Position numbers and translations under genes: made by a program. The notes under the pieces were generated by a model. That model did no database searches, was not told the origin of the DNA, and was given only the letters and a program-made list of their open reading frames with translations. From NCBI GenBank assembly GCA_016234725.1, contig JACRAK010000007.1, positions 2,121 to 66,120 of the forward strand: DNA of 64,000 nucleotides, in the 5' to 3' direction. The DNA is from Candidatus Azambacteria bacterium. Lineage in GTDB: Bacteria; Patescibacteriota; Minisyncoccia; GWC2-36-17; WO2-46-25. Positions 2,480 to 22,627 of the stretch are shown here, piece after piece (within the stretch, counting starts at the first letter, position 1; every line of letters starts with the position of its first letter).

Positions 2480-2511
2480 AATACAAGCGTTCTACCAGAT
2501 TCTCACCCTGT

Positions 2512-3261: not shown

Positions 3262-3300
3262 ACCAATTCTTACGAGGTCGCACCTCGTAAGAATTGGTTT
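3260..3300. repeat. REP palindrome copy 3 (19-bp arms) overlapping the RAYT stop codon
   Basis: aaaccaattcttacgaggt cgc acctcgtaagaattggttt. Confidence 0.85.
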
Positions 3301-3420: not shown

Positions 3421-6400
3421 TTAGAGCTGCTTCAAGAACCCGAAGATGTCCTGGAAGTTGGTGATGATAAGGTCGATCACGGTTTCGCCTTTCTTGGGCG
3501 TCAGGATGGTAAAGTCGGTCGAGCGTCCTTTGTTGTTGGACGGATCTGCCGACTCGACCTGGAAGCGGTACACCGCGCCCGGCTTGAAGCTCGTGATCAC
3601 CATCACATGGCTTGTCGTATACTCCTGGTCGAGCTTCGAGAATTCGACAAGGTCGCCTTTGCCCACGCCCTCTTTCCAGAATATCTGTGAAGTGGACGGC
3701 TCGTCCGTTTCCCAATAGATGAGCGTCTGCGTCCGTTCCGTTTTGCCCGGGAATATCGTGGACTCGGAGCGTACCTTGCTGATCACCGGCGCTTTCTCGT
3801 CCACCGTCGTGCGGATCGTGCCGATCACTTTGGAGGCGCGCGCATCGGTCACGTCCGCGCTCGATATCTCGATAAGGAAGTTGGTATTCGACGTAAGGTT
3901 CGCCACCGTCACTTCGTGGTCTTTCACGAATTCCGGCTTGCCCTGCGTCCTTGCTTCTTTGCTCAACAGCTCTCCGTCATCAAACGGCGTGTAGCGCACC
4001 TGCGAATTGGAAAGCGTGTTCGTCTTCCACACGACCGTGATGGAGTTTTCCGTGATGCGTTTGAATGAGTAATCAAGGATCTGCGGCAATTCCGGCTTGG
4101 TCTCAAACACAAAGTCGCGCGATTTGCCTTCCGGCCCCACTTTCGCCTGCGAACGGATCTGGAAATGATACGCCGTTGCGGGCTCAAGGTTCGGCACCGT
4201 CACGACGTGCGTCGTCACCTCTTCCCGCGGCTGGCCGACCTGCACGGTGTAGGGGTCCTTCGCATTCGGATCGTATTCGTCCTGCGGCACCAGCGCGATC
4301 AGCGAACCGGCCGGCTTGTTCGTGCGCCACGTCACCGTCGCTTTGTTCGAGTCGATATCCACCTGCGGCACGCCGCCGATGATCGCAGGCGGCACGACTT
4401 CCTGCGTGATCTCTGAAATGGTGTCGGTGATCTCGGTCGTCAACTCTTCAAGATCCGAAAGCGACACATCGGTGGACACGCTCTTGAGGATCGATTTGAA
4501 CCGCTGCACCGCGTCTCTGAGTGAATCCTGCGTCTTTGCCTTGCCGCGCAATTCTTCGAGTTCTTTTTTAAGCGATTCCAGATCTTCTTTCGCAAGCAAC
4601 GCTTCTTCTTCGACGGTAAGCGTCGTGAATGTCTGGTCGCCCGAGTACGCGCGATTCCCGCGCTGATCGGCGGACATCACTTTGAAATTGTATGCGGTCT
4701 TCGGATTAAGCCCCGACACCGTCACGGTATGATCGGTCGCCATTTCTTCCGAACCGGCGAGGCCCCCATAGTTCATCGTTACGCCGTATTTCACCAGCGA
4801 ATCGGCCGATTCGTCGGTCGTCCACGCGATCGTCGCCGCTGTCGCCTTGATGTCTTTGATCACGAGCGACGCGATGAGCGGCGGCGTCACATCGCCCACC
4901 TCTACGATGGTCCTGCCCACCGTTACCACGTCTTTTGCGATGGTGGCGCATGAAAGCGTCGCTGATACTTCGCCGCCGGAAGCGTTGAGTGACCGCACTT
5001 TCGCATAATAGGTCGTACTTTCGGTGAGGCCGGTGAACGTATTGGAGTGCGCGGTCACATAACCCGCCGCAGCGCGCGATGCGTTATCGATCGTCCCTGT
5101 CGGATACTGCGCAACCTGCGCGCCAGCTACGGTCGAGAAATAATTTGCACCGACATCAGCAGAAAGCAAGGAAAGTTCTGTCGTGGAGAACTGGTCGGTC
5201 GTCCACGTCACCGTTGCGGTGGAAGAGGTCGTGGAACATGCCGCCATCGTCGTTATTGCCGGCGGCGTTTGGGTGGTTGTTGTCAGAGAGCGGATCGTTG
5301 ATTCATCGTACTGCGTGTACGAATCGCTTGATGAGTTTTGGTCCGTAGAGCGCACTTTATAATAGTAGGTTGCCGAGTATGTCAGGTTCGGAATAACGAC
5401 CGTATGCACATACTGCCCGTTGCCGTCCGCCGAGGTTACCTGCGCGCTTGAACCGACTGATATCGGATTGACGAGCGCCGATGCGCTTGTCGTCGCGTAA
5501 AACACGATGGAGTCGGATGCCTTATCCGTTTTCCATGTAATAGAGGCAGAGTCAAACGCCGGCGTCGCCACGATGCTTCCGGAGACAATCGCGGGGCCAT
5601 TTTGCGTGGTGAATGTGTAGCCCGCATCCGACGCGCCTTCAAATGCGCAATTGCCCGTCGCATCGCACGACTCCGCGGCATACCGGTACTGCATGTTCTT
5701 GGTCAGATTTGAAAGCGCGATCGTATGCGTTGCGGGCGTGCTTGTCGCGACCGTGAGATAGCCGGGATTTCCCAACTTCGAGGTATATCGCTCGCGGCCA
5801 ACTTTTCCGCTATTCACGTTATTCGTGAAATCCTGCTGTGTCGCAAAATATACCGCGGCATTCGTCGCGCCCGACGCGCCATCCGTCGCGTTAAACGAGA
5901 CCGTCGCCGATGTCGCCTTCACCAGCGAACTCGCCACGTTCGTGACCACCGGCGCCGTAGCGTCATTGCCGCCGCCTCCTTCGCCGAGATTTACCGCCCC
6001 GTCCGGTTTCGCCGTCGTCGAGGCATTCGAACGAATGGACGTATTGCCGTTTGCCGCGGTCACGCCCAAGCGATACCGATAATACAGGTTCGTATTAAGA
6101 TTCTGATGCACATAGTAGTTGGTGGAAATGCTCGTGATCGGCGTCGTAGCGTTTATATAAGAAGAAAATGTCGTGTTGTTGGTCGATGTCGCGTATTCGA
6201 TCTTATATGAAGCGAAATCAGACGATGTCGCCGTTTCCCACCCGATGAATAAGCGCCAGTCGCTCGTGCCAACCTTGGAAACATCCTGCACCAAAAATGA
6301 GCTTGATGCCGCCGGCATGATCGTCGATGCGGTGGATGTTGCCGCGGTGTTCGCGTACGGGTCGCGTACCTGCACCTTCAATGTCTTTACTTCAAAATCG

Positions 6401-9400
6401 CTGTCAAATGTCCATGCTCTCGTGCCGGGTGTCGTAAATGTGGTCCACGGGGTCGAGCTTGCGGTCGAATGTGTTGCCGCATCATCAGCGATCATATACT
6501 GCGCCGTGCTTGTCGCATCGCCCGATGTCGACATGCTTACCGTTGCGCTTCCGGTCTCGCCCGCCACACCCGCATCGAATGTAAACCCGAATGTCGGCGC
6601 GACATTGTCAATAATGACGTTCGCGGATGAGTCGGTCGAGGAAACGCTCTGCGACGAAAGCTGATTTGCGAGATTATTATCATGCACAAGCACGCGCACC
6701 TTCGCGGTGTAATTTGAATAATTTGCAAGTTGCGATTCCGCCCGTTGATTCCATACAATTGATTTACCGGTTCCTTTCGTCACCGAACCGACATCGCCTG
6801 TTGTTCCGCTCGCCTTTATCCATACCGTGGTGCCGGAAGAATACGCTTTCGTGTGCCGCGTAGAAGCGCCCGGCCACGAAAGGTCGCTTGAACCGCGCGT
6901 CAATGTGCCAAGCGTCGTGCCGTTCACGATCGCGGCATATTTCACCACTTCAGTACCTATCTGCACATACCCTGACGACGGCATTTTTGATGTATCCGAT
7001 ACGGTCAGCGTCGTCGTGTTGTCACTGGTTAAAGTTACGCCCGCATCATAAAAAAGATATGCTTCGTAGGCATCGCTTGTTTCCGATGGATCATCGGCAA
7101 GATCATACGTCACCGTAACTTTCCCGGCATCAGCTACCGTGGCGCCATTGGTCGTCGCCGCCGTGGTCGCAACAACATTCGTCACGGTCGGTGCGGTATT
7201 CACCACATACGTCACGCTCGCGCTCGCAACATACGGCGCATTCAAATAATTAGAAGAAGGAATAAGCGTGATGCGATACTGATACCACTGGTCATTCGAG
7301 CCGTCGGCAAGCGCCGCGGGGATAGTTGAGAAAGTGTTCAGCCCCGTTCCTGTCGCGACCCAATATGTGTCAACGCCCGAAGGGCCGTACCATGATGCCG
7401 CAGAAAGTCCGCCCGATGCCGATGCGGTGCGCACCTGTATCTTTGCCGCGGTACCTGTTGGCAGTGTACTGACACTCATACGCACATCACCGATCACATT
7501 TGCAGCAGAACCGGAATCATACGGGGAAGAAATAAGCGTATAGCCGTTCGTGCTATCGAGCGGCTTTAGATAATTTACGGTTATGTCGTTTAATTGTGGC
7601 GTTGACCCACCATCGGTGGTCTGGAGTATGGCATCATATTGAAACCATCGGTCACCAGATCCGTCGGTCAACGCAGTGTTTGCAATAGCCCCCCTATTAT
7701 TCGCATCGACAAAATAATCGGTGCCGGAACAATTTGTCGGACCGCACCATGATGCCGTCGCAAGTCCCGAAAGCGAACTTGCGGTACGGATACGGAATTT
7801 CAAAACTGCACTACTTGACGTTACCCCACTCCAGCTGATCGAAGATATGCCGTTGCCGTCATTTTCGGTATCAAATGGCGAAGAAACAAGTGAATAATTA
7901 GTACCGGGAGCAGCAATAGGATATTGCTGATATGAAACGGTAATATCGCTCAATGATGGCGTTGTGTTGGCATATACAACGGTGCCTGTCGTAGATACGA
8001 ACGCCTTATATCGGAAATATCTGTTGCCGTTGATGATACTTGCAAGCGCGGATTGTATAATACATGTCACCGCATACGGATTCGAACCGGTCACTGTACA
8101 ATTTGTATTGTCTTTACTGAATTTTGAAGTACCAGACAGCGAACCGACCGCAGTTGTTGATCCATCGTAATTATAGTATGTCCACGGTCCGCTTGCGCTA
8201 TTTGAAGATGCAACCTGTATGTCTAGATCGGTGTTTGCCGGCTGGTTCAAATTAAACGCAAGTGAAGAAATGGTTGCTGCACCCCCAAGATCAATGACTC
8301 CTGATTCAAAATTTCCCGAAGTGGCGTAATTGTCCTTGGTGTTGAATCGTCCAGAATTAGTACCAAGCTCCGCTGCGACAAAAATATTGCCGTTGTCTAT
8401 AGAAACTATTGATGATTCACCGAATACTGAAACACCCCATGGATTCGGATACGTGGTCGACAAATTAGTCCATGCACCGCTTGCAATAGTATATTTCGCG
8501 AAATAGGGAGCAGAGTTATAGAAGGAATAAAGGGTGCCGACTCCATCAAAGACAATGTATCCGTAATTTAACATTGCGTTAGACGATGTCAGATCGGTCC
8601 ACGTATTTGAAACGATATTAAACTTGGCAAAATCTGTAGGAGCGCCTCCTACAAGCTGATGGGCAGAAATATAAATATCTCCATTCACGCTATCATGCGT
8701 CATGCTCGCGGCACCAACCGTCCACGGCAATGGTTTGGTAGCTGTTAGATTTGTCCACACGCCGGTCGCGGTATCATACTTCGCAAATTGTGCAGTTGGA
8801 GTGCTTCCTCCTGCACCAGCAAGATAAAGAGTACCGCTGCCATCGGAAACTAGAGCGCCATTGGATACAGAAAATGGTGGGGGATTCGTGCTGGTGAGAT
8901 TTGTCCAGGTGTTTGTTCCCGGATTATATTTGGCAAAATTAGTAGTCCCCAATCCCCCTATAACAAAAATATTTCCCGTGACGCTATCATACACAACTCC
9001 TCCTCCGCCCACGTTAAATGGTACCGGTTTCGTGCTTGTAAGATCCGTCCATGCATTTGACATTACGCTATATCGTGCAAACCCGTTAGTAGAATACCCT
9101 TTCACGCTATAAATTGTCGCATTGCCGTCATACGCTAATCCGCCAATGTAACTGTTATAAGGAACTGGAGCAACTTCAGTGAGATTAACCCACGCATTAG
9201 CTGATATCTCTTTATATAAATTAACGCTGCCCGCACCCGCTGATCCATTTACCTCGGTGCTTGAGTTGGTGCCATTATAAAAACCAAGTCCATTTACCGA
9301 TACGCCTGCCGCTCCGCTATTTGCGCCACTTCCGCCGGTCACTGTGGGAGCTGAACCCGATACACTCCCTCTCAAAATAACTCTTCCTCCACCTCCTCCG

Positions 9401-10695
9401 CCGCCGCTAGCCGAAGAACCGCTGCCGCCTGCGCCGCCGCTTGCGGAAATAACGCCGCTGTTTGAGATGCTTGCACTTGTTAATTCTATTCTTCCTCCTG
9501 CGCCGCCGCCGCCGCCAAATGTACATCCGGTACCGCCTGCGCCGCCGTTTTCGGTTACCGCACCAGTCACTGTAATGTTGCCGCTACTTATTATTTTAAG
9601 ATATCCGCCACCTGCGCCGCCGCCGCCACCTGGATTATATGTGCTATTTCCACTACCGCCGCCGCCACCTGCGCCGCCGAGTTCAAGATTATACGCGGAG
9701 CTACCCCTCCCGTAACTTGTACCGCCGCCATTGCCGCCTGCGCCCCCATATCCGCCGCCGCCGCCGCTACCATAAGTACTGTAACCTCCCATACCGCCAA
9801 CAGTACCAGCGCCACCGCCACGCCCTGAATTCCCATTTGTATAACTTCCGGATGTCCCAGATCCGCCACTACCGCCATTATACCCGCCCGCAACACCCGT
9901 TGCACCAGCACCCGTTGTTCTTCCCGATACTCCACAATTTGTCGCACTACCACCGTTCGCACCATTGAGATTAATGGTACCGCTGACAGTGACATTTCCT
10001 GTGGCATTGATAGTAATGGCCGTAGAACCGGTCGCGGTTAAGGTAACTCCAGAATCAATATTAAAAGAAGTATAATTATAAGTTCCCGCGGCAATTACAC
10101 AATTCGGCGCAGTGCCGCTGATACCGGTGCCACTGCATGAACTAGTGGTCAGATTGACCGCTCCATCAGTGCCCGTGCCTCCACTAAAAGTAATCGCCGC
10201 CGATCCAGTAGTGGTTAACGTGCCGTCATCCGTAACAGTACCGTTTACAACAGCAAGCCGTAAACCCCCTGGCGTAGTTGTATAATCAATATGTGCATCG
10301 GTGGTGCTTGCGCTTGTCCACCCGGTTTGGTTGCTGGTGTGATTTGCAGAAGTCGTTTGATTCACCGACGACCAAGTGGTCTGTGCGAAACTGCCCGTCG
10401 AGGTGGCGACGGTCAGATCGGTTCCCGTAGTAAGATACGACGAGCTGGTGGAATAAAAGCTCGTCACACCAGTTTGTGCCGCACCACCCGTGTGGCCTGC
10501 AGTCGCATTGGTATCGGCAGAGGCCGCCCAATCATTTTGCGTGAACGTGAAGCTCGCCGCGAGCGCGGGAGCAGAAGGTGTAAGCGTGACGCTCACCACG
10601 TTCACCGCGACAAACGCAGTGACAAATATTTTCCTCACAAGACCTTTAAACTTTGAAGCTTTTAAACTTCTGCTCCCCTTTCCACCTCGACTCAT
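3421..10695 (-). CDS. giant surface protein (2424 aa): N-terminal signal/TM anchor, long Gly-rich low-complexity tract, Kelch-like beta-propeller repeats (FAKY..W.NLT), multiple Fn3/Ig-like domains, C-terminal coiled coil
   Basis: single uninterrupted ORF; N-terminal hydrophobic segment VTAFVAVNVVSVTL...ALAASFTF; recurring ~50-aa FAKYN.GTNTWT.LTS repeats; Fn3-like blocks (ITWKTD...YYYKV). Confidence 0.8.
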   Translation of the reverse strand: MSRGGKGSRSLKASKFKGLVRKIFVTAFVAVNVVSVTLTPSAPALAASFTFTQNDWAASADTNATAGHTGGAAQTGVTSFYSTSSSYLTTGTDLTVATSTGSFAQTTWSSVNQTTSANHTSNQTGWTSASTTDAHIDYTTTPGGLRLAVVNGTVTDDGTLTTTGSAAITFSGGTGTDGAVNLTTSSCSGTGISGTAPNCVIAAGTYNYTSFNIDSGVTLTATGSTAITINATGNVTVSGTINLNGANGGSATNCGVSGRTTGAGATGVAGGYNGGSGGSGTSGSYTNGNSGRGGGAGTVGGMGGYSTYGSGGGGGYGGAGGNGGGTSYGRGSSAYNLELGGAGGGGGSGNSTYNPGGGGGAGGGYLKIISSGNITVTGAVTENGGAGGTGCTFGGGGGAGGRIELTSASISNSGVISASGGAGGSGSSASGGGGGGGRVILRGSVSGSAPTVTGGSGANSGAAGVSVNGLGFYNGTNSSTEVNGSAGAGSVNLYKEISANAWVNLTEVAPVPYNSYIGGLAYDGNATIYSVKGYSTNGFARYSVMSNAWTDLTSTKPVPFNVGGGGVVYDSVTGNIFVIGGLGTTNFAKYNPGTNTWTNLTSTNPPPFSVSNGALVSDGSGTLYLAGAGGSTPTAQFAKYDTATGVWTNLTATKPLPWTVGAASMTHDSVNGDIYISAHQLVGGAPTDFAKFNIVSNTWTDLTSSNAMLNYGYIVFDGVGTLYSFYNSAPYFAKYTIASGAWTNLSTTYPNPWGVSVFGESSIVSIDNGNIFVAAELGTNSGRFNTKDNYATSGNFESGVIDLGGAATISSLAFNLNQPANTDLDIQVASSNSASGPWTYYNYDGSTTAVGSLSGTSKFSKDNTNCTVTGSNPYAVTCIIQSALASIINGNRYFRYKAFVSTTGTVVYANTTPSLSDITVSYQQYPIAAPGTNYSLVSSPFDTENDGNGISSISWSGVTSSSAVLKFRIRTASSLSGLATASWCGPTNCSGTDYFVDANNRGAIANTALTDGSGDRWFQYDAILQTTDGGSTPQLNDITVNYLKPLDSTNGYTLISSPYDSGSAANVIGDVRMSVSTLPTGTAAKIQVRTASASGGLSAASWYGPSGVDTYWVATGTGLNTFSTIPAALADGSNDQWYQYRITLIPSSNYLNAPYVASASVTYVVNTAPTVTNVVATTAATTNGATVADAGKVTVTYDLADDPSETSDAYEAYLFYDAGVTLTSDNTTTLTVSDTSKMPSSGYVQIGTEVVKYAAIVNGTTLGTLTRGSSDLSWPGASTRHTKAYSSGTTVWIKASGTTGDVGSVTKGTGKSIVWNQRAESQLANYSNYTAKVRVLVHDNNLANQLSSQSVSSTDSSANVIIDNVAPTFGFTFDAGVAGETGSATVSMSTSGDATSTAQYMIADDAATHSTASSTPWTTFTTPGTRAWTFDSDFEVKTLKVQVRDPYANTAATSTASTIMPAASSSFLVQDVSKVGTSDWRLFIGWETATSSDFASYKIEYATSTNNTTFSSYINATTPITSISTNYYVHQNLNTNLYYRYRLGVTAANGNTSIRSNASTTAKPDGAVNLGEGGGGNDATAPVVTNVASSLVKATSATVSFNATDGASGATNAAVYFATQQDFTNNVNSGKVGRERYTSKLGNPGYLTVATSTPATHTIALSNLTKNMQYRYAAESCDATGNCAFEGASDAGYTFTTQNGPAIVSGSIVATPAFDSASITWKTDKASDSIVFYATTSASALVNPISVGSSAQVTSADGNGQYVHTVVIPNLTYSATYYYKVRSTDQNSSSDSYTQYDESTIRSLTTTTQTPPAITTMAACSTTSSTATVTWTTDQFSTTELSLLSADVGANYFSTVAGAQVAQYPTGTIDNASRAAAGYVTAHSNTFTGLTESTTYYAKVRSLNASGGEVSATLSCATIAKDVVTVGRTIVEVGDVTPPLIASLVIKDIKATAATIAWTTDESADSLVKYGVTMNYGGLAGSEEMATDHTVTVSGLNPKTAYNFKVMSADQRGNRAYSGDQTFTTLTVEEEALLAKEDLESLKKELEELRGKAKTQDSLRDAVQRFKSILKSVSTDVSLSDLEELTTEITDTISEITQEVVPPAIIGGVPQVDIDSNKATVTWRTNKPAGSLIALVPQDEYDPNAKDPYTVQVGQPREEVTTHVVTVPNLEPATAYHFQIRSQAKVGPEGKSRDFVFETKPELPQILDYSFKRITENSITVVWKTNTLSNSQVRYTPFDDGELLSKEARTQGKPEFVKDHEVTVANLTSNTNFLIEISSADVTDARASKVIGTIRTTVDEKAPVISKVRSESTIFPGKTERTQTLIYWETDEPSTSQIFWKEGVGKGDLVEFSKLDQEYTTSHVMVITSFKPGAVYRFQVESADPSNNKGRSTDFTILTPKKGETVIDLIITNFQDIFGFLKQL

Positions 10696-10726: not shown

Positions 10727-10757
10727 AATTCCTACGAGGTGCGACCTCGTAGGAATT
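10727..10757. repeat. REP-like palindrome, variant copy 4 (aattcctacgaggt-gcg-acctcgtaggaatt)
   Basis: same acgaggt/acctcgt core as the RAYT REPs with a different loop; sits between the giant-gene start and the HEPN gene stop. Confidence 0.75.
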
Positions 10758-11184
10758 ATTTTATTTTTCCCAATACAAACTCCTTAATTTTCTTTGCCGC
10801 TTCATATGCCTTTCTTGCTTCTTGAAATGTAAACTCGGGGTAATCTCCTGTATATCGGGTCTCTACATAATATCTATTAAGGAGAACAAGATCGTCTTCA
10901 TAATTCTTGATCTCTTTTTCATAGTGCAATAATAGGTCTTCTAATTTTAACAAGTCATGTATTTTGGGAAATCTTTTATCATAAAACACAAGCATTCCTT
11001 TTAGGTATTTTTCCGCCATTTGTTGTGAAAGAAAGCATGCGGTGCTTGGCGCGCCGCGCTCATCTCTTAAAATTGCGCCGATAGAGAGCTCATCCTCTTG
11101 CGCTTTCTTAAACAATTCGTGATGTTTTGTTTCATTATTCATTGCCATATAAAACCTTCCCTTTTTCAAAAATATCTTCCACAA
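10756..11184 (-). CDS. HEPN domain protein (toxin-like partner of the upstream nucleotidyltransferase); true start probably an internal Met near 11148
   Basis: HEPN (PF05168-like) motifs QQMAEKYLKGML and LLNRYYVETRY; overlaps the MNT gene. Confidence 0.7.
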   Translation of the reverse strand: MWKIFLKKGRFYMAMNNETKHHELFKKAQEDELSIGAILRDERGAPSTACFLSQQMAEKYLKGMLVFYDKRFPKIHDLLKLEDLLLHYEKEIKNYEDDLVLLNRYYVETRYTGDYPEFTFQEARKAYEAAKKIKEFVLGKIK

Positions 11185-11452
11185 AAAAATCCTTCAATTC
11201 CATTCTTTTTTGCACTTGTGCCGGAGTATATACAATTAAATCCATTGCGAACTGCCTTGGAAAAACAAAGCGATCTATTTTTCGCGCCATATCCCTCGTG
11301 TTTTCAGTTTCCTTCACAATAAACAAATCTACATCGCTGTCTTCGGTAGGGTTTCCCCACGCGTAAGAGCCGAAAAGAATAATTTTTTCCGGATTATATT
11401 CCTTGCCAATCCTATCCGCTGTTTCCTGAATTTTTTCAAAAGCTATTTTCAT
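11135..11452 (-). CDS. minimal nucleotidyltransferase (MNT, Pol-beta superfamily) paired with HEPN
   Basis: GSYAWGNPTEDSDVDLFIV = GS..G..x(n)..D.D nucleotidyltransferase motif; 105 aa. Confidence 0.8.
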   Translation of the reverse strand: MKIAFEKIQETADRIGKEYNPEKIILFGSYAWGNPTEDSDVDLFIVKETENTRDMARKIDRFVFPRQFAMDLIVYTPAQVQKRMELKDFFVEDIFEKGKVLYGNE

Positions 11453-11457
11453 TTTTA

Positions 11458-11604
11458 TTATTTTCTCCTGGCATCCATGTACAAGCGCAACGCCTGGCGG
11501 ATGAATTCGCTCTTTGTCTTCTCCTCTTTTTTCACCAGCTGCGCCGCCTCTTTCTCAAGCTTAGGGGGCAACGATATCACCCACACTTTTCTCTGGATCG
11601 CCAT
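11458..11604 (-). CDS. ribbon-helix-helix (CopG/MetJ-like) small DNA-binding protein, 48 aa; not in the ORF track (<60 aa)
   Basis: manual translation MAIQRKVWVISLPPKLEKEAAQLVKKEEKTKSEFIRQALRLYMDARRK; stop 6 nt upstream of the MNT start. Confidence 0.55.
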   Translation of the reverse strand: MAIQRKVWVISLPPKLEKEAAQLVKKEEKTKSEFIRQALRLYMDARRK

Positions 11605-11739
11605 ACTGTATTACTTTGTATTACATACCCCTTCTCCCCCTTCTTTCTTTTTCTAGATTCTAAATCCTAGATTCTAACTTCTATGTGCTGTATTACTTTC
11701 ATTATACATACAACGAAAATAATAGGGAAATCCGCATAG

Positions 11740-11750
11740 TGTGGATAACT
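11740..11750 (-). promoter_or_regulatory. DnaA-box-like 11-mer AGTTATCCACA (reverse orientation)
   Basis: tgtggataact; one of four identical 11-mers in the window. Confidence 0.5.
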
Positions 11751-11865
11751 TCCTTATTCACATTTCTGACTTCCCTATCATTTCCTTATTCCTCATGAGG
11801 GAAGTCGGATTTCACTCACCAATAAAAAAGCTCCTCGTACATGAGGTGCTTATGCTCTGTCTATT

Positions 11866-11886
11866 CTCTACTCCCTACTCGCTAAT
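11866..11886. repeat. GTAG-repeat family copy (tctactccctactcgctaa) at the yraN 3' end
   Basis: nearly identical to cctactccctactcgctaat at 56786-56806. Confidence 0.6.
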
Positions 11887-12256
11887 GTATGTTGATATTC
11901 TCTATATGCCGTATCTCGGCTTCCCCGCTTACATCGTCAAACACTGCAGAAATGCTGTCCATCTGCCACTTTTGCTCAGGGGAGATCTTGCGCACGAACA
12001 AAAACATCTCGACTGTCCTGGCGAACTTTCTCAGTTTATGAAAGGTGATGTTTTCCTCCGGCGCGATGTAACTCCCCTTCTTTACGCTCTTTACCTCCAC
12101 AAAAACAATATCGCCGCCAGGACTTCTGGCGACGACATCTATCTCTCCGAACTTCGTATTAAAATTGCGCTCAATTATCGAATACCCTTCAGAAATAAGA
12201 TATTCTGCCGCTTTTTCTTCCCCCGTATTTCCCGTTGCGCGCCTTTGAGTGATCAT
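11882..12256 (-). CDS. yraN: YraN family (UPF0102) endonuclease; start moved to the Met at 12256 because the track's N-terminal extension is encoded by tRNA-derived repeats
   Basis: EKAAEYLISEGYSIIERNFNTKFGEIDVVA...VFVEVK matches UPF0102; upstream 144 nt of the track ORF are tRNA fragments. Confidence 0.75.
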   Translation of the reverse strand: MITQRRATGNTGEEKAAEYLISEGYSIIERNFNTKFGEIDVVARSPGGDIVFVEVKSVKKGSYIAPEENITFHKLRKFARTVEMFLFVRKISPEQKWQMDSISAVFDDVSGEAEIRHIENINIH

Positions 12257-12262
12257 CTTTTG

Positions 12263-12297
12263 TGGACTCACCGGGAATCGAACCCGGAACTCAGCAA
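12263..12297 (-). other. orphan 3' half of tRNA-Ala (anticodon-stem 3' strand to discriminator), preceded by GC-rich leader TTTAGGCGGGCAGG
   Basis: 35 nt identical to positions 38-73 of the adjacent complete tRNA-Ala. Confidence 0.8.
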
Positions 12298-12316
12298 CCT
12301 GCCCGCCTAAATTTTG

Positions 12317-12387
12317 TGGACTCACCGGGAATCGAACCCGGAACTCAGCAATGCGAATGCTGCGTAATACCATTTTACTACGAGCCC
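12317..12387 (-). tRNA. tRNA-Ala (anticodon CGC)
   Basis: hand-folded cloverleaf: acceptor GGGCTCG/TGAGTCC with G3:U70 Ala identity pair, D-stem GTAA/TTAC, anticodon stem CAGCA/TGCTG, loop TTCGCAT, T-arm CCGGG-TTCGATT-CCCGG. Confidence 0.8.
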
Positions 12388-12418
12388 TTTTAAAGTCCAC
12401 AAAACTTGGGCGGGTGAA

Positions 12419-12452
12419 CGAATGCTGCGTAATACCATTTTACTACGAGCCC
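12419..12452 (-). other. orphan 5' half of tRNA-Ala (positions 1-35, ends ...CAGCATTCG), followed by 31-nt element TTCACCCGCCCAAGTTTTGTGGACTTTAAAA (12388-12418)
   Basis: 34 nt identical to the 5' half of the complete tRNA-Ala. Confidence 0.8.
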
Positions 12453-12483
12453 TTTTAAAGTCCACAAAACTTGGGCGGGTGAA

Positions 12484-12519
12484 CGAATGCCGCGTACTAC
12501 GACTATACTATGAGCCCCC
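12484..12519 (-). other. orphan 5' half of a different tRNA (GGGGGCTCATAGTATAGTCGTAGTACGCGGCATTCG), followed by the same 31-nt element (12453-12483)
   Basis: tRNA-like acceptor, D-arm and anticodon-stem 5' strand ending at TTCG, then an identical junction sequence. Confidence 0.65.
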
Positions 12520-12613
12520 TCTTTTCTTTTAAAACGAAATCATTATAATGCATGCATTGCAATTTGACAACTTCATACTACCAAAATCGTTTTAACGAAA
12601 AAGGAGGTGTCTT

Positions 12614-12982
12614 ATGATGGACAAAAATGAAAGAGAGATACTTGTCAATGCTCTAAAGGTTATAAAGGGAACTCGTTTCATTCCTCACGTATATTCAAAC
12701 ATGGCCTACAATAGCCGAGAATATACTGATGCCGTCGACGCATTGGTGAAGCTTTCCGGGGACAATGAAATCAGGGAAAAAGCGCAGCACTACGCCTTAA
12801 AATGGGAAGAGCGATTGAAGGAAAGAGGGGAGAAGGATCTCAAAGAATCAACAAAAAACGGCACTGGAAAGACGTTAAAGATACTAGGGGGATGTCTTTT
12901 TGCGCTTGCCGCGATTGGCACAACCGCGGGGATTGTGCATCATAGGAGAAAAAAAAATGAACAAAAGAAAACAGGGGAATAA
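12614..12982 (+). CDS. hypothetical protein with C-terminal transmembrane segment
   Basis: strong SD AAGGAGGTG 7 nt upstream; 122 aa; C-terminal hydrophobic stretch ILGGCLFALAAIGTTAGIV. Confidence 0.55.
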   Translation: MMDKNEREILVNALKVIKGTRFIPHVYSNMAYNSREYTDAVDALVKLSGDNEIREKAQHYALKWEERLKERGEKDLKESTKNGTGKTLKILGGCLFALAAIGTTAGIVHHRRKKNEQKKTGE

Positions 12983-13055
12983 TCCCCTGTTTTCCATTTT
13001 TTGCGTTTCTTTAAACTTCCAGATTCTATTTTCTAGTTTCTAGATTCTGCCTTAA

Positions 13056-13095
13056 TGGTCGGAATGCCGGGAATCGAACCCGGATTACACGCACC
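13056..13095 (-). other. orphan tRNA 3' half with encoded CCA (GTGCGTG-TAAT-CCGGGTTCGATTCCCGG-CATTCCG-A-CCA), preceded by leader TTTAGGCGGGTGAGAGG
   Basis: T-arm identical to the tRNA-Ala T-arm; its acceptor strand has no partner in the adjacent complete tRNA. Confidence 0.65.
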
Positions 13096-13123
13096 TCTCA
13101 CCCGCCTAAATTTCGTCTTGTTG

Positions 13124-13194
13124 TCGGGGTACTCGGAATCGAACCGAGACCACACGCACCCGAAGCGTGCGTACTGCCACTATACTATACCCCG
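13124..13194 (-). tRNA. tRNA-Pro (anticodon CGG)
   Basis: hand-folded: acceptor CGGGGTA/TACCCCG, anticodon stem CACGC/GCGTG, loop TTCGGGT, T-arm CTCGG-TTCGATT-CCGAG. Confidence 0.75.
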
Positions 13195-13450
13195 AAACTT
13201 TGGCGGGCGGGGCGTGCGTAATGCTTCACCCTCCCACCTTTTACACATATTAACTCCTCTAGAAACCAATCACCAATTCTGCTGGACGCTATGCAACTGC
13301 GTGCAGATGTAAAAAGGCGGGAGGGCAAGCTATACCACATTCCGAAATCCCCTATTTTCACACACCCGAAACGTCTTATGCGGGCTTCTCCGATAATGCG
13401 CCTTTTCGGGATATGTTACCATTTCCCGAAAACCCGCGCTATACCTGCTG

Positions 13451-14989
13451 TTACACGCGAAACTTCCTCTGTTCTTCCTCCTCAAGCAACTTAACCTTCT
13501 CCTCGCCTTTCTTTATCATCTCCGAAAGCTCGCTGATAGAAAACTTATCCAACACAACCGCCCGCGCTTCCAGATAATCTTTATCGTTTTTTTGCGGGTC
13601 GTCAAGAACCTCTGAAAACAAGGCATTGAGAATGACCCCCACTTTCGGCCCCGGCGCAATGCCCAATATCCGCATCACCTCGTTTCCGTCAATTTTGAGC
13701 ATTTTAACGGAGATCGGGTCTTTTGACACCTTCTCGACCATATACCTGAAATGGCGCAATTTATAGGGCTCCGCCTTTGGCACGCCCGACCCTATCCTAT
13801 CGGCAAACCGAACATTGACGAGATCGTCCATATTTTCAAGCCCGACATTCCGTACCAGCCGCCGCACGGAAGACGCCGTCACCTCGTCTACATTATAGTA
13901 AAAGAGGTGATAGCGGATGAGTCGCGCGACATCCTCGATTTCCTTATTCGAGAACTTCAATCGGCTCATCGCCTGTGCGGCGATGCGCGCGCCGATCATG
14001 TCGTGGTTGTAAAACGTGGCATTCGGTCCCTCGCCCTGTTTTGCCTTCGGCTTCCCAACGTCATGGAGCAACGCCGCAAATCGCACCGTAAAACTAAACC
14101 CTTGCTCTGCGGCATAGCGGAGCGATTTTAAATTATGCTCATACACATCGAATATATGGTGTTTGTTTTGTGAAACGTGATACCCGTCAAGCAATTCCGG
14201 CAAAACGAAATGCAAGAGCCCGACCTGGCGCAATAGATCGATGCCGTCTGCCGCGTTTTTGCACATGACTATTTTTATGAGTTCGTCGCGGATGCGCTCG
14301 TGTGAAACAACGCGAATGAGAGCGGCGTGTTCCTTAACCGCGACGAGCGTTTGTTCTTCTATGGTAAACTCAAGCTGTGTCGCAAATCGCACCGCGCGCA
14401 CCAAGCGCAACGCGTCTTCATTGAACCGCTCACTTGCGTTTCCAACCGCACGCACTATTTTTTCTTTCAGGTCTTTTTGTCCACCGAATGGATCGATGAT
14501 CGTGAAACGTAAATCCTGAATCTTGGAGCTTGCATCTTGAATCATGGATCTTGAATCCTGGGTTTCGGGTTTCAAGTTTTGAGTTTCAAGATCGAGCGCC
14601 ATCGCGTTGATCGTAAAATCTCTCCGCGCAAGATCTTCTTGTAAATGCGTCGTATATTGCACGCTGTCCGGATGGCGTTTGTCGGAATATGCATTATCGA
14701 CGCGATATGTCGTGATCTGAATTTCCATGCCGTCAATGAACGCGGTCACTGTGCCGAATTTGTTTTCGTAAAAACTTTTGGGGAACACTGCCTGTACTTC
14801 CTCCGGCTTCGCGTTGGTCGCCACGTCCCAATCATTCGGTTCGCGCCCGAGCAACACGTCGCGCACGCAACCGCCGACGGCATACGCCGCAAATCCCGCG
14901 CGCGCCAGCTCGCTCCCGACGTACATCACTTCTTTCGGAATTACCTCATGCATGCGCATACTATAATACGCTAACGCGCTCCGGCGCAA
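13451..14989 (-). CDS. cca: CCA-adding tRNA nucleotidyltransferase (head domain + HD domain), carrying an in-frame ~25-aa repeat-derived insertion
   Basis: GGCVRD...DWD, RDFTINAMA...IIDPFGG and HD-domain HDVGK motifs; insertion LETQNLKPETQDSRSMIQDASSKIQDL between them. Confidence 0.85.
   Translation of the reverse strand: MRRSALAYYSMRMHEVIPKEVMYVGSELARAGFAAYAVGGCVRDVLLGREPNDWDVATNAKPEEVQAVFPKSFYENKFGTVTAFIDGMEIQITTYRVDNAYSDKRHPDSVQYTTHLQEDLARRDFTINAMALDLETQNLKPETQDSRSMIQDASSKIQDLRFTIIDPFGGQKDLKEKIVRAVGNASERFNEDALRLVRAVRFATQLEFTIEEQTLVAVKEHAALIRVVSHERIRDELIKIVMCKNAADGIDLLRQVGLLHFVLPELLDGYHVSQNKHHIFDVYEHNLKSLRYAAEQGFSFTVRFAALLHDVGKPKAKQGEGPNATFYNHDMIGARIAAQAMSRLKFSNKEIEDVARLIRYHLFYYNVDEVTASSVRRLVRNVGLENMDDLVNVRFADRIGSGVPKAEPYKLRHFRYMVEKVSKDPISVKMLKIDGNEVMRILGIAPGPKVGVILNALFSEVLDDPQKNDKDYLEARAVVLDKFSISELSEMIKKGEEKVKLLEEEEQRKFRV
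14511..14590. repeat. tandem ATCTTGAAT-type repeat block lying in-frame inside cca
   Basis: gaatcttggagcttgcatcttgaatcatggatcttgaatcctgggtttcgggtttcaagttttgagtttcaagatcg; related to blocks at 45784-45905 and 46341-46450. Confidence 0.7.
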
Positions 14990-15124
14990 TAATAATGACC
15001 GCGGTGATATGTATTACAGTGTATTACTCTATCTCGGTTCTTACTATGCCTGTTATTACTACGGGACGAAAGAGAGGAGAGGGGAGGGGAGAGAAAAAGA
15101 AGAAAGGAATTTGTAATACACTCG

Positions 15125-15156
15125 TCACAAACTCACGCGTATGCGTGAGTTTGTGA
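15125..15156. repeat. dispersed palindromic element copy 1 (tcacaaactcacgc-gtat-gcgtgagtttgtga), preceded by tgtaataca
   Basis: perfect 14-bp arms; near-identical copies at 15756-15789 and 24111-24142. Confidence 0.8.
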
Positions 15157-15169
15157 TTTTCCTGTTCTC

Positions 15170-15718
15170 TTATTCAATTCCGAATACGCGCTTTAATTTT
15201 TCTTCCCCTTCAAAGCGGGACACATACATGAGTATGATGTGATCCCGAACACCCCAAAATACGCCAAGCGCATCTATTTCCTTCTCGCATGGAAACGGAG
15301 ATAAAAACACGCTCTTTTGCAGCTGATAAAAATCGAGTTCTTTTAATTTCCGTCGCAGCGCATCGCGCGCCGTATTCTTATGGCTCGGGATATCAAACAT
15401 CACCAACCGCCATGTACCATCCCAGCGCTTCGGCCGTGCAAGCGTCATGGTTTCAAGATTATATTTCAACACCGCTTCTTTTCCGCCCGCCTTTAATCGC
15501 AAACGGATCGTCCCATCTGCGGCCTCATGTATATCGATCAATTCTCGTTTCTGCAGGCGCTTCAGATCCTGCATAAATTTGTTTTTTTCAAATTTTTTCG
15601 CGCGCATATACTCCCGTAGCAATTGGCGGGGGAGAAGAGGATTTGCGACGGAAAGCGCCGCAACACCGCCGGCAAGCGCCACGAAATGCAAAATCTTTTT
15701 TGTATGCGAATCTTTCAT
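15170..15718 (-). CDS. hypothetical protein: N-terminal hydrophobic segment, wHTH-like region, C-terminal Cas2/VapD-like (PaaX-C-like) fold suggested by WRLVMFDIPSHKNTARDALRRKLKELDFYQLQKSVF
   Basis: 182 aa ORF; the motif resembles the Cas2/VapD beta-alpha-beta core; weak, family not certain. Confidence 0.4.
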   Translation of the reverse strand: MKDSHTKKILHFVALAGGVAALSVANPLLPRQLLREYMRAKKFEKNKFMQDLKRLQKRELIDIHEAADGTIRLRLKAGGKEAVLKYNLETMTLARPKRWDGTWRLVMFDIPSHKNTARDALRRKLKELDFYQLQKSVFLSPFPCEKEIDALGVFWGVRDHIILMYVSRFEGEEKLKRVFGIE

Positions 15719-15755
15719 ATATATCTATATCCTATCTCCAGTATATCAGATATTT

Positions 15756-15789
15756 GTCACAAAATCACGCATACGCGTGATTTTGTGAC
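15756..15789. repeat. dispersed palindromic element copy 2 (gtcacaaaatcacgc-atac-gcgtgattttgtgac)
   Basis: variant of the 15125 and 24111 copies. Confidence 0.75.
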
Positions 15790-15904
15790 AAGCTTATGAA
15801 AAGATGTAGCGCACGGTGGGCGCGTACTATGCATTGTGCAACCATAAAAAAGGTGGTATAAAAGCCTGGTATCGTTATCGTATTTACTGCGCGCGCGCCT
15901 GTAG

Positions 15905-15979
15905 CTCAACGGATAGAGCGCATCCCTGCGAAGGATGAGACCGAGGTTCAATTCCCCGCAGGCGCACCAATAGCATTTC
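15905..15979 (+). tRNA. tRNA-Arg (anticodon GCG) with encoded CCA
   Basis: acceptor GCGCCTG/CAGGCGC, D-arm GCTC-AACGGATA-GAGC, anticodon stem CATCC/GGATG, loop CTGCGAA, T-loop TTCAATT, one A-C mismatch in the T-stem. Confidence 0.7.
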
Positions 15980-16121
15980 ATACATTGTTGGCTCTCAAAG
16001 AAACACTGTATGACACGCCCATAATTGAACCAGGGAAGGGGTCGGGAAACCTATGGGTTTCCCGTTGCGGAAATATTAAAACCGAAGGGTTTTAAAAAGT
16101 GAGCGAGGTGACGAGCGAGCG

Positions 16122-16144
16122 CGTTCAATTCCCCGCAGGCGCAC
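16122..16144 (+). repeat. 23-nt direct repeat of the tRNA-Arg 3' end (gttcaattccccgcaggcgcacc), att-like scar
   Basis: exact copy of 15956-15978, about 165 bp downstream. Confidence 0.75.
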
Positions 16145-16190
16145 CGAAGCAAAACCCTCTCGCACATACGCGCGAAGGGGTTTTGCACAT

Positions 16191-16610
16191 ATGCACATAG
16201 CGGGGAAGCGAGCTTCCGTATATAATGGAGGCATGGCGAAAAAGAGAAAGAGTATCCTTATCATAGAAGACGAGGCGGCGCAGATCCACGCGCTCGAAAA
16301 AACATTTCTCAAAGAGGGGTATGCCGTGCATGCCGCGGAAAACGGACAGGAAGGATTCGAGAAAGCAAAAGTGGAAACGCCCGATGTCATTCTGCTTGAT
16401 ATCATCATGCCGGTCATGGACGGCATCACCGCGCTTGAAAAAATAAACGGCGACGATGACACAAAACACATTCCCGTGATCGTGCTCACCAATTTCGCGC
16501 TGTATGAACAAGTGCGCCCGTTCATGGACCAGGGCAAAGACCATTTCCTTACCAAGATCAACACGTCGCTTAAAGACGTCGTTACAAAAGCAAACACCAT
16601 TCTCTCGTGA
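16191..16610 (+). CDS. standalone response-regulator receiver (CheY-like REC) protein; probable start at the Met at 16233
   Basis: ILIIEDE...DVILLDIIMPVMDG...KHIPVIVLT...K motifs; no output domain. Confidence 0.8.
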   Translation: MHIAGKRASVYNGGMAKKRKSILIIEDEAAQIHALEKTFLKEGYAVHAAENGQEGFEKAKVETPDVILLDIIMPVMDGITALEKINGDDDTKHIPVIVLTNFALYEQVRPFMDQGKDHFLTKINTSLKDVVTKANTILS

Positions 16611-18517
16611 AACTCTCCCTTACACAACAAGCATTGCTGTTGTGCGCCATCACCCTGCTTTCAAGCGGCATCGCGCTGATATGGTTTGGCACCGATGCGC
16701 GCGTTCTTGTCCTTGCGATCACCATATCCATCGCAATGGCCGCATTCGGCGTGCGCATTCTTTTTTCCACGATACGATCCCTCAGCGATCTGCGTTCCCG
16801 CGTCGACCAAGTGGCAAAAGGGAACTATGACGTCATCACGCCGGTGCGCGGCATCGGCGAGATCGAAAAACTCGTCGACGCGTTCAACGTCATGGCGTTC
16901 CGGCTGAAACATCATGAGCGGCATCTCGCGCACAAAGCATACCAAGCCGCAGTGCTCAAAGAGATCTCGGAGCGCATCACCGCGTCGCTCGACGAAAGCG
17001 AAGCGGTGGAGATCATCGCGGGATCGCTCGGCAAGGTCGTGCCCTACAGCATCGCTTCGTATCTCACGCTCAAAAACAACGGCGCCGCGCTCCTCAAGTG
17101 CCACATCGAAGAATCGGTCAACAAAGCATTCGCGGAGGAAGCAAAGCGCATCCTGTTTGGCGCGCTCGCTGCGCTTGGAAACAGCACGCTCTCAGAAGAA
17201 CAGATCGAAAAAACGATATGTTTTGGCGCATTCTTTGACGAGGAAGCAAAAGCCCCCGTGCGCTCGCACTTTACGCTTCCCATATATGTGAATAGCGCGC
17301 TCACCGGGATCATCACCGTCACCTCCGCAACGCCGAATCTGTATAAGGAAGAGGAGATAGGTATTTTATACACTGTCACGGAACAGGCGGGCGCGACGAT
17401 ATCGAAAACGAAAGCTCTCATCGCCGAGGAGTCGAACAAGACCCAGTCCATGCTTTCGTCCATCAACGAAGGACTCATTATGGTCACCACCGGACAGAAA
17501 ATATCGATCATCAATGAAAAAGCGAAAGAGATCATCGGCATCCCGCACCAGGACAACCCCACATTGCTCGATGTCATTCAGGCGCTCTACGGTACATTCG
17601 ATTTTCGCGGCGCCACCGACCGCGTGCTTGCGTCCAAACAAACGCAATCATTCCAAGAATTCACCGCGGGGGCCAGCGCATACAAGATCATCGCGAACCC
17701 CGTGAAAGAAAAAGATGGGGACATCGTCGGCGTCGTATTCATCTTTTCCGACATCACGAAAGAAAAAGAGATCGACCGGATGAAAACGGAATTCATTTCC
17801 ATCACCTCGCACCAACTGCGCACGCCGCTCTCATCCATGAAATGGTTCCTTGAAATGCTCATCAACAAAGATGCCGGCGAACTGCCGGAAAAAGCAAAAA
17901 CGATCGTTGAGGATGTATACAGATCGAACGAGCGCATCATCACGCTCGTGAACGACCTGCTTGATGTATCGCGCATCGAGGCGGGCAAGATGCAGAACGA
18001 ACCGACGCCGACCAACCTCATTGAATTCCTCAAAAGCATGCTTCCGGAAGCAGAGCAACAATTCAAGCAACGGTGTCAAACATTCGAATTCCGCCGGCCG
18101 GATACGCTTCCGCGCGCGATGGTGGACCCCAAGCTCGTATGGCAGGTGATCGGGAATCTTTTGAGCAATGCGTCCAAATACACGCCGGAAGGAGGGAAAA
18201 TATCGCTTGAGCTTTCTATTCACGATGATGCCGTTCTTTGTGCGATCACCGACAACGGCTACGGCATCCCTGAATTCCAACAGCATCGGATATTCGAGAA
18301 ATTCTTCCGCGCGGACAATACCGCGAAAATGGAAGGCACCGGGCTTGGCATGCACATCGCGCGGCAGATCACCAACGCGATGGGAGGAACACTATGGTTT
18401 GAATCCGCAGAAGGAAAAGGAACGGCGTTTTATCTTTCGCTGCCGATCACCGGCGCAAAAAAACAGGAAAAACCCGTGCGGTCACGCGCTAAAAATGATA
18501 CACTGCAACCCATATGA
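16607..18517 (+). CDS. membrane sensor histidine kinase (2 TM, HAMP, GAF/PAS-like, HisKA, HATPase_c)
   Basis: H-box EFISITSHQLRTPLSSMKWFLEML; G-boxes GTGLGMHIARQI; GTG start overlapping the REC stop. Confidence 0.85.
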   Translation: MKLSLTQQALLLCAITLLSSGIALIWFGTDARVLVLAITISIAMAAFGVRILFSTIRSLSDLRSRVDQVAKGNYDVITPVRGIGEIEKLVDAFNVMAFRLKHHERHLAHKAYQAAVLKEISERITASLDESEAVEIIAGSLGKVVPYSIASYLTLKNNGAALLKCHIEESVNKAFAEEAKRILFGALAALGNSTLSEEQIEKTICFGAFFDEEAKAPVRSHFTLPIYVNSALTGIITVTSATPNLYKEEEIGILYTVTEQAGATISKTKALIAEESNKTQSMLSSINEGLIMVTTGQKISIINEKAKEIIGIPHQDNPTLLDVIQALYGTFDFRGATDRVLASKQTQSFQEFTAGASAYKIIANPVKEKDGDIVGVVFIFSDITKEKEIDRMKTEFISITSHQLRTPLSSMKWFLEMLINKDAGELPEKAKTIVEDVYRSNERIITLVNDLLDVSRIEAGKMQNEPTPTNLIEFLKSMLPEAEQQFKQRCQTFEFRRPDTLPRAMVDPKLVWQVIGNLLSNASKYTPEGGKISLELSIHDDAVLCAITDNGYGIPEFQQHRIFEKFFRADNTAKMEGTGLGMHIARQITNAMGGTLWFESAEGKGTAFYLSLPITGAKKQEKPVRSRAKNDTLQPI

Positions 18518-19947: not shown

Positions 19948-19970
19948 CGATGCGAATATACGAATTATAC
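19944..19970. repeat. left inverted repeat of the GxxExxY cassette (gtagcgatgcgaatatacgaattatac)
   Basis: 25/27 nt perfect reverse complement of 20369-20404. Confidence 0.85.
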
Positions 19971-19972
19971 TA

Positions 19973-20374: not shown

Positions 20375-20404
20375 TTCGCATAATTCGTATATTCGCATCG
20401 CTAC
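20369..20404. repeat. right inverted repeat of the GxxExxY cassette (with a 9-bp internal duplication)
   Basis: reverse complement gtagcgatgcgaatatacgaattat[gcgaattat]ac. Confidence 0.85.
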
Positions 20405-20418
20405 TCTTAATAAAATAT

Positions 20419-22280: not shown

Positions 22281-22305
22281 TCCCTATTGGAACTACTATT
22301 AATCT

Positions 22306-22557: not shown

Positions 22558-22627
22558 CTGTTACCGATCTTCCGTCGTCCGACGACCGAATGCCCCGTTG
22601 TTCGAGATCGGACTCCAAATACTGAAA

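Follow-up and report, generated by a model that had tools for sequence, protein, structure and literature searches.

A tRNA-Ala array in Patescibacteria as the probable scar of a tRNA-carrying, palindrome-ended cassette in the anticodon loop of a cognate tRNA gene

When genomic islands and prophages integrate into tRNA genes, the anticodon loop is often the target, and the incoming tRNA sequence preserves function while a displaced partial tRNA copy stays in place. Partial tRNA genes left by integrated elements of kilobase size have been described (10.1101/2022.07.05.498093). Among archaea, the split, permuted and bulge-helix-bulge (BHB) tRNAs of Nanoarchaeum, Caldivirga and the Thermoproteales come as half-genes broken in the anticodon loop, with complementary GC-rich sequences at the break. 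MITEs, REPINs and Rickettsia palindromic elements measure 35–125 bp, have inverted arms and many copies per genome, are polymorphic for presence and absence, carry 4-bp direct repeats at some copies and insert in functional genes; those of Rickettsia lie inside genes. Finally, group I introns interrupt tRNA genes of Patescibacteria, and such interrupted genes are missed by annotation tools (PMC13011429); a term search of that paper for nested tRNAs, pseudogenes and palindromes returned nothing. The locus described here, from the same phylum as these introns, recalls each of these systems and differs from each. We found no description of a complete tRNA between inverted arms within a cognate relic in the literature searched, which is not proof of novelty.

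The window (the whole stretch of 64,000 nucleotides that was analysed) carries on its minus strand, in this order, a promoter, a 5′ tRNA half (A), a 31-nt element, a second 5′ half (B), the 31-nt element again, a tRNA-Ala(CGC), a 19-nt trailer, a 3′ half, CAAAAG and yraN. The features are as follows.

12542–12570, minus strand: strong sigma-70-type promoter, TTGTCA-17-TATAAT, upstream of the entire array
12484–12517, minus strand: 5′ relic A, positions 1–35 of a putative older resident tRNA-Ala allele, GGGCTCATAGTATAGTCGTAGTACGCGGCATTCG
12453–12483, minus strand: left arm copy 1 (31-nt element), recognised as a sequence repeat and inverted repeat
12419–12452, minus strand: 5′ half B, an exact copy of positions 1–35 of the inner tRNA
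12388–12418, minus strand: left arm copy 2, immediately flanking the intact tRNA
12317–12387 (start 12316 or 12317, depending on the tool), minus strand: intact inner tRNA-Ala(CGC), called by ARAGORN and Rfam
12298–12316, minus strand: trailer and right arm CAAAATTTAGGCGGG followed by CAGG, the stretch reading CAAAATTTAGGCGGGCAGG
12263–12297, minus strand: 3′ relic, tRNA-Ala positions 38–73, the same as the 3′ half of the inner tRNA
11882–12256, minus strand: yraN (UPF0102), with its ATG at 12256, 6 nt past the 3′ half

A preliminary description of this DNA had reported one complete tRNA-Ala(CGC) among tRNA halves. ARAGORN and Rfam agree on that gene (62.5 bits in Rfam; G3:U70, A73, CCA not encoded), which is probably the sole functional RNA product of the array. 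The 31-nt element said to follow each 5′ half, TTCACCCGCCCAAGTTTTGTGGACTTTAAAA, occurs exactly twice (12388–12418 and 12453–12483), with matches in 0 of 100 shuffles. It is made up of TTCA, an arm core CCCGCCCAAGTTT, the complement of the tRNA 3′ end TGTGGACT, and TTAAAA, and the right arm at 12298–12316 is its inverted partner. Half B and the element together form a direct repeat of 65 nt (12354–12418 and 12419–12483; 100%), and the extra exact 3′ half of the preliminary description proves to be part of a 40-nt direct repeat that includes the trailer (12258–12297 and 12312–12351; 100%). The complementary motifs CCCGCC and GGCGGG, also noted previously, form the termini of a 21-nt inverted repeat (12302–12322 against 12394–12414 and 12459–12479; 90% complementary), which takes in the last 8 nt of the tRNA, and the start of yraN does lie beside the array. 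The account of the two extra 5′ halves holds in part: one is indeed an exact copy, whereas the other is not of a different isotype, since relic A joined in silico to CA and the 3′ half is called as tRNA-Ala(CGC) and represents a diverged tRNA-Ala allele. Relic A bears C in place of the conserved G18, and its end reads CGGCATTCG and not CAGCATTCG, as had been stated. C36 and A37 of the resident tRNA-Ala are absent, the break falling between positions 35 and 38.

We consider it likely that the array is a scar at the DNA level, left by a tRNA-carrying, palindrome-ended cassette in the anticodon loop of a cognate tRNA-Ala gene. At the start, a resident tRNA-Ala(CGC) would have stood between the promoter (12570–12542) and yraN. 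A non-coding cassette of about 115–120 bp would then have entered the part of the gene that encodes the anticodon loop, replacing C36-A37; it would have consisted of inverted arms, TTCA-CCCGCCYAARTTT... and ...AAAYTTRGGCGGG-CARG, whose cores are the two given here, around a complete tRNA-Ala(CGC) of a different allele. Co-oriented and read from the resident promoter, the cassette tRNA would have assumed the function of the gene, and the outer 5′ and 3′ halves would have become dead relics. Unequal recombination between the direct repeats of the 5′ half may later have doubled the 65-nt unit, yielding the second 5′ half, and gene conversion may have made half B and the 3′ relic match the inner gene. 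By way of these direct repeats, relics could also be lost, which would explain loci with a 5′ relic only, clean sites and allele turnover. In the predicted fold, the arm joins the tRNA 3′ end and trailer in a helix of some 22 bp, so processing may start with a double-strand-specific cut: this helix may be an RNase III site, and cleavage there might free the pre-tRNA ahead of RNase P, RNase Z and CCA addition. One of the options raised in the preliminary description, a tRNA element bounded by terminal inverted repeats, is supported by these results; beyond that option, the element appears to sit within an older cognate tRNA gene, in its anticodon loop.

Orthologous loci, fetched from metagenome contigs through YraN homologues of 52–83% identity, keep the gene order CCA enzyme, tRNA-Pro, variable DNA, tRNA-Ala and yraN. 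The content ahead of tRNA-Ala, back to tRNA-Pro, varies among strains, and yraN lies downstream of tRNA-Ala in most relatives examined (the context differs in L024 and L026). In L152, promoter and leader (to 12520) match the window at 50 of 50 nt and lead directly into a single intact tRNA-Ala(CGC) that abuts yraN; relic A begins where the L152 tRNA starts, and the 3′ relic lies where it stops. With the same promoter and leader and one uninterrupted tRNA-Ala, L152 thus represents an empty site. One clean tRNA-Ala is present in each of L001–L004, while L151 and L016–L023 combine the same promoter with a decayed 5′ relic and a full tRNA, and L005–L015 and L149 have at least one 5′ relic bearing small hairpin insertions. 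The tRNA-Ala(CGC) at this position comes in three different sequences among relatives. Empty and filled alleles can therefore be set side by side for tRNA-Ala (L152 and the window) and for tRNA-Pro (L001/L015 and the window). The preliminary description had named, as a pattern that would speak against its account, a single tRNA-Ala in relatives with a prophage or integrase nearby: the single gene is found, the prophage or integrase is not (among the neighbouring ORFs scanned), and the nesting recurs widely.

The 100% identity of half B and the 3′ relic with the inner gene means that the window by itself also fits duplication in situ. A palindromic hairpin already present in or close to the tRNA gene could have provoked template switching or unequal exchange and the halves could have been duplicated around it with no mobile cassette, although we regard this as unlikely; that the inner and outer copies both arose from the resident gene, as it entails, is equally unlikely. 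Such a rearrangement would account for the identity of half B and the 3′ relic with the inner tRNA of the window, for a left arm that holds the inverted tRNA 3′ end and trailer, as if the palindrome had grown by arm copying, and, automatically, for the cognate siting of every listed tRNA-bearing element (see below). It is opposed by diverged loci. A metagenome scan with the 21-nt arm returned six JGI contigs, independent of the window (L024–L029), with the layout 5′ half, arm, (5′ half, arm,) intact tRNA-Ala, arm, 3′ half; the 5′ half is double in L024 and L026 and single in L025 and L027–L029. Their outer and inner genes differ in the acceptor stem (GGGCCTA/TAGGTCC vs GGGCTCA/TGAGTCC) and in the anticodon stem (TGGCA/TGCCA vs CGGCA/TGCCG). 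When the outer 5′ half is paired with the outer 3′ half in L025, L027 and L029, 7/7 acceptor and 5/5 anticodon-stem pairs form, as against 6/7 and 4/5, or more wobble pairs, in mixed combinations of outer and inner halves. Because the outer halves pair best together, they were once one tRNA-Ala gene, and the inner one represents another allele. These compensatory stem differences, seen in L025, L027 and L029 and again in the tRNA-Pro of the window, indicate that inner and outer copies diverged as functional genes in different lineages. The relics decay: A3 with loss of G3:U70 is found in L024 and L026, a C27-A43 mismatch in L028 and the C18 of relic A in the window.

The tRNA-Pro(CGG) gene is the only other place in the 64-kb window at which the arm motif occurs, and it is nested in the same manner.

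13056–13094, minus strand: outer tRNA-Pro(CGG) 3′ half, positions 37–73 and CCA of the putative resident allele
13095–13123, minus strand: right arm of the tRNA-Pro cassette, CAACAAGACGAAATTTAGGCGGGTGAGAG (includes AAATTTAGGCGGGTGAGAG)
13124–13194, minus strand: intact inner tRNA-Pro(CGG)
13195–13211, minus strand: left arm of the tRNA-Pro cassette, CCCGCCCGCCAAAGTTT
13212–13224, minus strand: outer tRNA-Pro relic, D stem to 5′ strand of the anticodon stem, GCATTACGCACGC
13225–13329, minus strand: second palindrome-ended insert, 105 bp, without a tRNA
13330–13344, minus strand: outer tRNA-Pro relic, positions 1–15, CGGAATGTGGTATAG, the same as in the intact tRNA-Pro of L001/L015

The acceptor stems of the inner and outer tRNA-Pro differ throughout, and the differences are compensatory. 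By eye, the outer relic equals the intact tRNA-Pro of L001/L015 at all but one retained position, and when rejoined in silico it is called as tRNA-Pro; a match of the outer allele to the intact gene of a relative argues further against an origin of both copies in situ. The 105-bp insert (CTTG CCCTCCCGCCTTTTTACA ... TGTAAAAGGTGGGAGGG TGAA) interrupts the outer tRNA-Pro in its D loop, where it replaces TG. Two concentric palindromic shells surround the tRNA-Pro of L016, whose outer 3′ Pro relic has an internal deletion, and L029 has the second shell family only.

Duplication in situ is also opposed by how widely these arms and their TTCA/CAAG ends recur, at many isotypes and in numerous distant genomes. 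When one genome per species was scanned with the pattern CCCGCCHAARTTT-N(72–100)-AAAYTTDGGCGGG, at least 119 loci were identified, nearly all in MAGs labelled Patescibacteria/CPR; the labels among the matches listed include Uhr-, Kaiser-, Wolfe-, Sungii-, Buchanan- and Tagabacteria, Paceibacterota and Saccharibacteria. Arm pairs often number several per genome (for example H14-bin029_1, MAG041 and H41-bin211_1), and the exact 21-mer arm gave no match in species-representative genomes. A tRNA is enclosed in 24 of the 122 arm pairs among the matches listed and AT-rich sequence in the other 98, and the enclosed tRNAs cover at least eight isotypes (Ala, Val, Met, Pro, Arg, Glu, Leu and Trp). By inspection, each of the 24 listed tRNA-bearing copies adjoins a piece of a tRNA of matching isotype on one side at least and usually on both, co-oriented with the inner tRNA and broken in the anticodon, D or T loop; none of the tRNA-bearing copies listed lies outside a cognate gene. 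A stricter automatic test (flanking self-match score of 15 or more) was passed by 13 of 22 arm-flanked tRNAs listed, by 18 of 50 other tRNAs in the listed loci and by 1 of 72 shuffled controls; some of those 18 show the same nesting, with arms that are diverged or of other families.

In our judgement the arms probably constitute a palindromic family resembling MITEs or REPINs, found widely in Patescibacteria, in which a minority of copies carry a tRNA. As in MITEs, terminal inverted repeats bound a short non-coding body, the family is multicopy, and empty and filled alleles exist. In contrast to MITEs and REPINs, the cargo is an entire tRNA gene, cognate to the disrupted one, nested copies lose CA without target duplication, and the arm core crosses candidate phyla. 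The pairing of REPINs with RAYT is not seen either: the RAYT-like Y1 transposase gene of the window (2512–3261) is flanked by a different palindrome, TTACGAGGTCGCACCTCGTAA, and not by CCCGCC arms. Several of these properties count against a cassette. Cognate-only siting is poorly explained by random transposition followed by selection; it could reflect survival only when the cargo complements a broken essential gene, or homology-assisted targeting. An arm core kept across very distant lineages is unusual for a MITE and may be a sign of host function. Nested copies have no target-site duplication, their TTCA/CAAG ends are constant and 2 nt are lost. In about 0.9 Mb of fetched loci, we found no convincing longer, possibly autonomous element with these arms and no cognate transposase; arm pairs more than 150 bp apart are essentially absent there, with two exceptions (163 and 1494 bp).

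The junctions follow a strand-symmetric rule. In one polarity, TTCA-CCCGCC...GGCGGG-CAAG replaces CA in tRNA genes for Ala, Val and Met (CAGG in place of CAAG in the window), the lost CA being C36-A37 in Ala and Val and C34-A35 in Met. In the opposite polarity, CTTG-...-TGAA replaces TG, for example T34-G35 of tRNA-Pro(TGG) or a D-loop TG, as in the D-loop insert of the window. The inner tRNA is always in the orientation of the outer gene, as expected if the cargo relies on the resident promoter. The tRNA-less copies bear other signs: perfect 4-bp direct repeats flank 12 of the 98 listed, against a chance expectation of about 0.4, and seven of these 12 are TATG at start codons; among hairpin-only copies of 31–35 nt, two of four have direct repeats (CTTA/CTTA and CTGG/CTGG), and many other copies stand at the apex of longer palindromes. 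On these sequence signs the arm family looks mobile.

Sequence reasoning was applied to several known target rules, none of which accounts for TTCA[...]CAAG with loss of CA: the G|TT core of integrons, the central dinucleotide of serine recombinases, the overlap region of tyrosine recombinases, the target tetranucleotide of IS200/IS605, the CTTG/GTTC target of IS91 and a simple target duplication of 2 or 4 bp. GGCGGG-loop-CCCGCC hairpins, considered as circle junctions or terminators, are rare and unrelated. As a separate observation, TTCA and CAAG joined together equal the intact anticodon loop of tRNA-Val(CAC) plus G39.

The neighbourhood of the array contains genes for a CCA-adding enzyme, tRNA-Pro(CGG), a HEPN/nucleotidyltransferase pair, a PaaX/Cas2-like protein, a response regulator and histidine kinases. 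YraN itself falls in the UPF0102/YraN family and, by homology search, is 100% identical to an NCBI YraN family protein of Candidatus Azambacteria. Pfam scans covered ORFs at 899–3261 and 10756–30465, with the 2424-aa ORF at 3421–10695 outside the set, and contained no integrase or resolvase. The tRNA-Arg gene of the window has a 3′ fragment 150 nt downstream of it, which fits the pattern of an integrase scar.

That tyrosine- or serine-integrase scars accumulated in the anticodon loop, each integration displacing a portion of the tRNA gene and the elements afterwards being almost wholly deleted, appears very improbable to us, and the serial scars suggested in the preliminary description do not agree with the data. 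Integrases classically target anticodon and T loops and usually leave partial tRNA copies behind (10.1101/2022.07.05.498093); the tRNA-Arg fragment of the window, and the gene content that varies among strains between tRNA-Pro and tRNA-Ala, would fit as well. However, the flanks are complementary halves and not one repeated att core, the 5′ halves standing upstream and the 3′ half downstream, and no shared core sequence is left because CA was lost. What separates the halves in more than 30 loci is only the inverted arms and a whole tRNA. Unlike an island, the cassette would be a non-coding insert of about 115 bp with inverted arms, a whole tRNA and both halves of the target kept. No integrase is found in the scanned neighbouring ORFs, and viral contigs gave no match at long or short arm spacing.

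A functional intron-containing or split tRNA, in which the arms would unite the outer halves, is highly improbable, and no less so in the form in which RNase P and RNase Z would excise the inner tRNA and leave the halves to be ligated or to work as a tRNA in two pieces. Acceptor and anticodon stems can still form from the outer halves, and AlaRS requires the acceptor stem only. Folding predicts strong structure in the array transcript (−99.8 kcal/mol, z = −4.9), with arm–arm helices. With C36-A37 missing, however, joined halves cannot restore a 7-nt loop. The junction forms an 8×5-nt internal loop beside the CCCGCC/GGCGGG helix and has no BHB motif, and the intron mode of ARAGORN, proposed earlier as a check for a split gene, calls only the inner gene. 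The halves are absent in relatives, including L152 with its identical promoter, and the relics decay; an intact cognate tRNA always stands beside the halves. Both cassette polarities occur under one strand-symmetric rule, which points to a DNA event and not to RNA splicing. Unlike archaeal split tRNAs, the array has an intact copy between halves that are dispensable, vary among strains and decay; its junction is imprecise and its host bacterial. At lenient thresholds, Rfam searches of the window and its relatives returned tRNAs only, with no intron match at E<=1; in contrast to the group I introns of the phylum, the insert lacks a group I fold, is too short, shows no sign of splicing and has a second tRNA inside. 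The split or permuted tRNA genes offered in the preliminary description, and the intron reading with them, are thus largely refuted.

That metagenome assembly produced the repeated halves is scarcely credible: the window does come from a MAG, its exact repeats of 65 and 40 nt are shorter than typical reads and close to the k-mer size of assembly, and a similar array in L015 contains an N gap, but the same architecture stands in six independent, diverged contigs and at the tRNA-Pro of the window, and the inverted repeat contains mismatches, which an assembler cannot produce in such a repeat.

A DNA-level scar of a tRNA-carrying cassette therefore remains our preferred reading for the window. 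It is possible, though we offer this only tentatively, that tRNA-carrying cassettes of Patescibacteria generally target CA in the DNA that encodes loops of cognate tRNAs, that the cargo directs them there (by homology or guided by the tRNA) and not selection alone, that they become impossible to lose because they break an essential single-copy gene and provide its substitute, and that loss of relics through recombination of direct repeats then turns over tRNA alleles between lineages.

If the cassette reading is true, a DNA element can disrupt an essential single-copy gene and persist because it brings its own copy. This would amount to a minimal, protein-free addiction, whether the element is selfish or domesticated, and it would account for the three tRNA-Ala(CGC) sequences at one locus in close relatives. 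Annotation of tRNAs in Patescibacteria will hold relics and hidden nesting. The array is also a bacterial counter-example at the DNA level, in that tRNA halves with complementary GC-rich sequence need not indicate split genes, and it bears on arguments for an origin of split tRNAs through insertion of mobile elements. Finally, the constant TTCA/CAAG ends and the replacement of CA pose a biochemical question, that of a recombination activity acting on loop-coding, hairpin-forming DNA.

All three tRNA genes of the window have partial copies close by, since the third, tRNA-Arg(GCG), is also accompanied by a fragment of itself:

15895-15969, plus strand: tRNA-Arg(GCG) gene, with a copy of its 3′ end downstream
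16123-16145, plus strand: 23-nt copy of that 3′ end, GTTCAATTCCCCGCAGGCGCACC

The copy lies about 150 nt downstream of the gene with its break point in the T loop, and the pair looks like a classic att-type duplication enclosing a very short remnant.

Repeats of other kinds occur in the window and among its relatives. An IS200-type gene and a palindrome were located in the window:

2512-3261, plus strand: RAYT-like Y1 transposase gene with HFH motif
2526-2544, 2722-2740, 3271-3289 and 10733-10751: palindrome TTACGAGGTCGCACCTCGTAA

The palindrome is found on both flanks of the transposase gene, with one copy in frame within the ORF as listed, and its fourth copy separates the giant-protein gene from the HEPN gene. 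Two further features of the window were recorded:

10756-11452, minus strand: HEPN/nucleotidyltransferase (MNT-type) gene pair, toxin-antitoxin-like, directly downstream of yraN
29617-30465, plus strand: ORF with a pilin-like N-terminal-methylation motif as well as a 23S rRNA intervening-sequence protein domain; it may be two neighbouring genes read as one

In several metagenomic relatives (L005 2090-2420, and L008, L011-L015, L149 and L151 upstream of tRNA-Ala), the 5′ relic of tRNA-Ala bears a hairpin, CCCGTC...GACGGG, in place of the anticodon loop. Behind this hairpin come a second palindrome, CTGTTTGT...ACAAACAG, whose copies differ from one another by compensatory changes, and a short anticodon-loop fragment. 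As this second palindrome is also present at an unrelated site in the metagenome contig L029 (7686-7740), it constitutes a separate repeat family.

Among the palindromic elements without tRNA cargo, a subgroup in the species-representative genomes (L031, L033, L035, L052, L074, L082 and L086) is positioned exactly at start codons, as in GGAGTATG, the element and then TATGAAC. TATG flanks the element on either side, and the downstream gene therefore retains its ATG.

tRNAs for Arg, Gly and Pro are nested in cognate relics at the following loci, between other arms (CTGCCCGCCA.../...TGGCAGGCGGG; CCTCCGTAGCAG...):

L074, 3578-3649
L145, 4953-5026
L080, 3686-3756
L135, 3300-3372

The nested tRNA design is spread over more than one arm family. 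At the orthologous tRNA-Ala(CGC) position, the window and four relatives (L001, L005, L016 and L152), the relatives' YraN being 52-83% identical to that of the window, carry three clearly different sequences at one locus. Such turnover is unusually fast for a tRNA gene.
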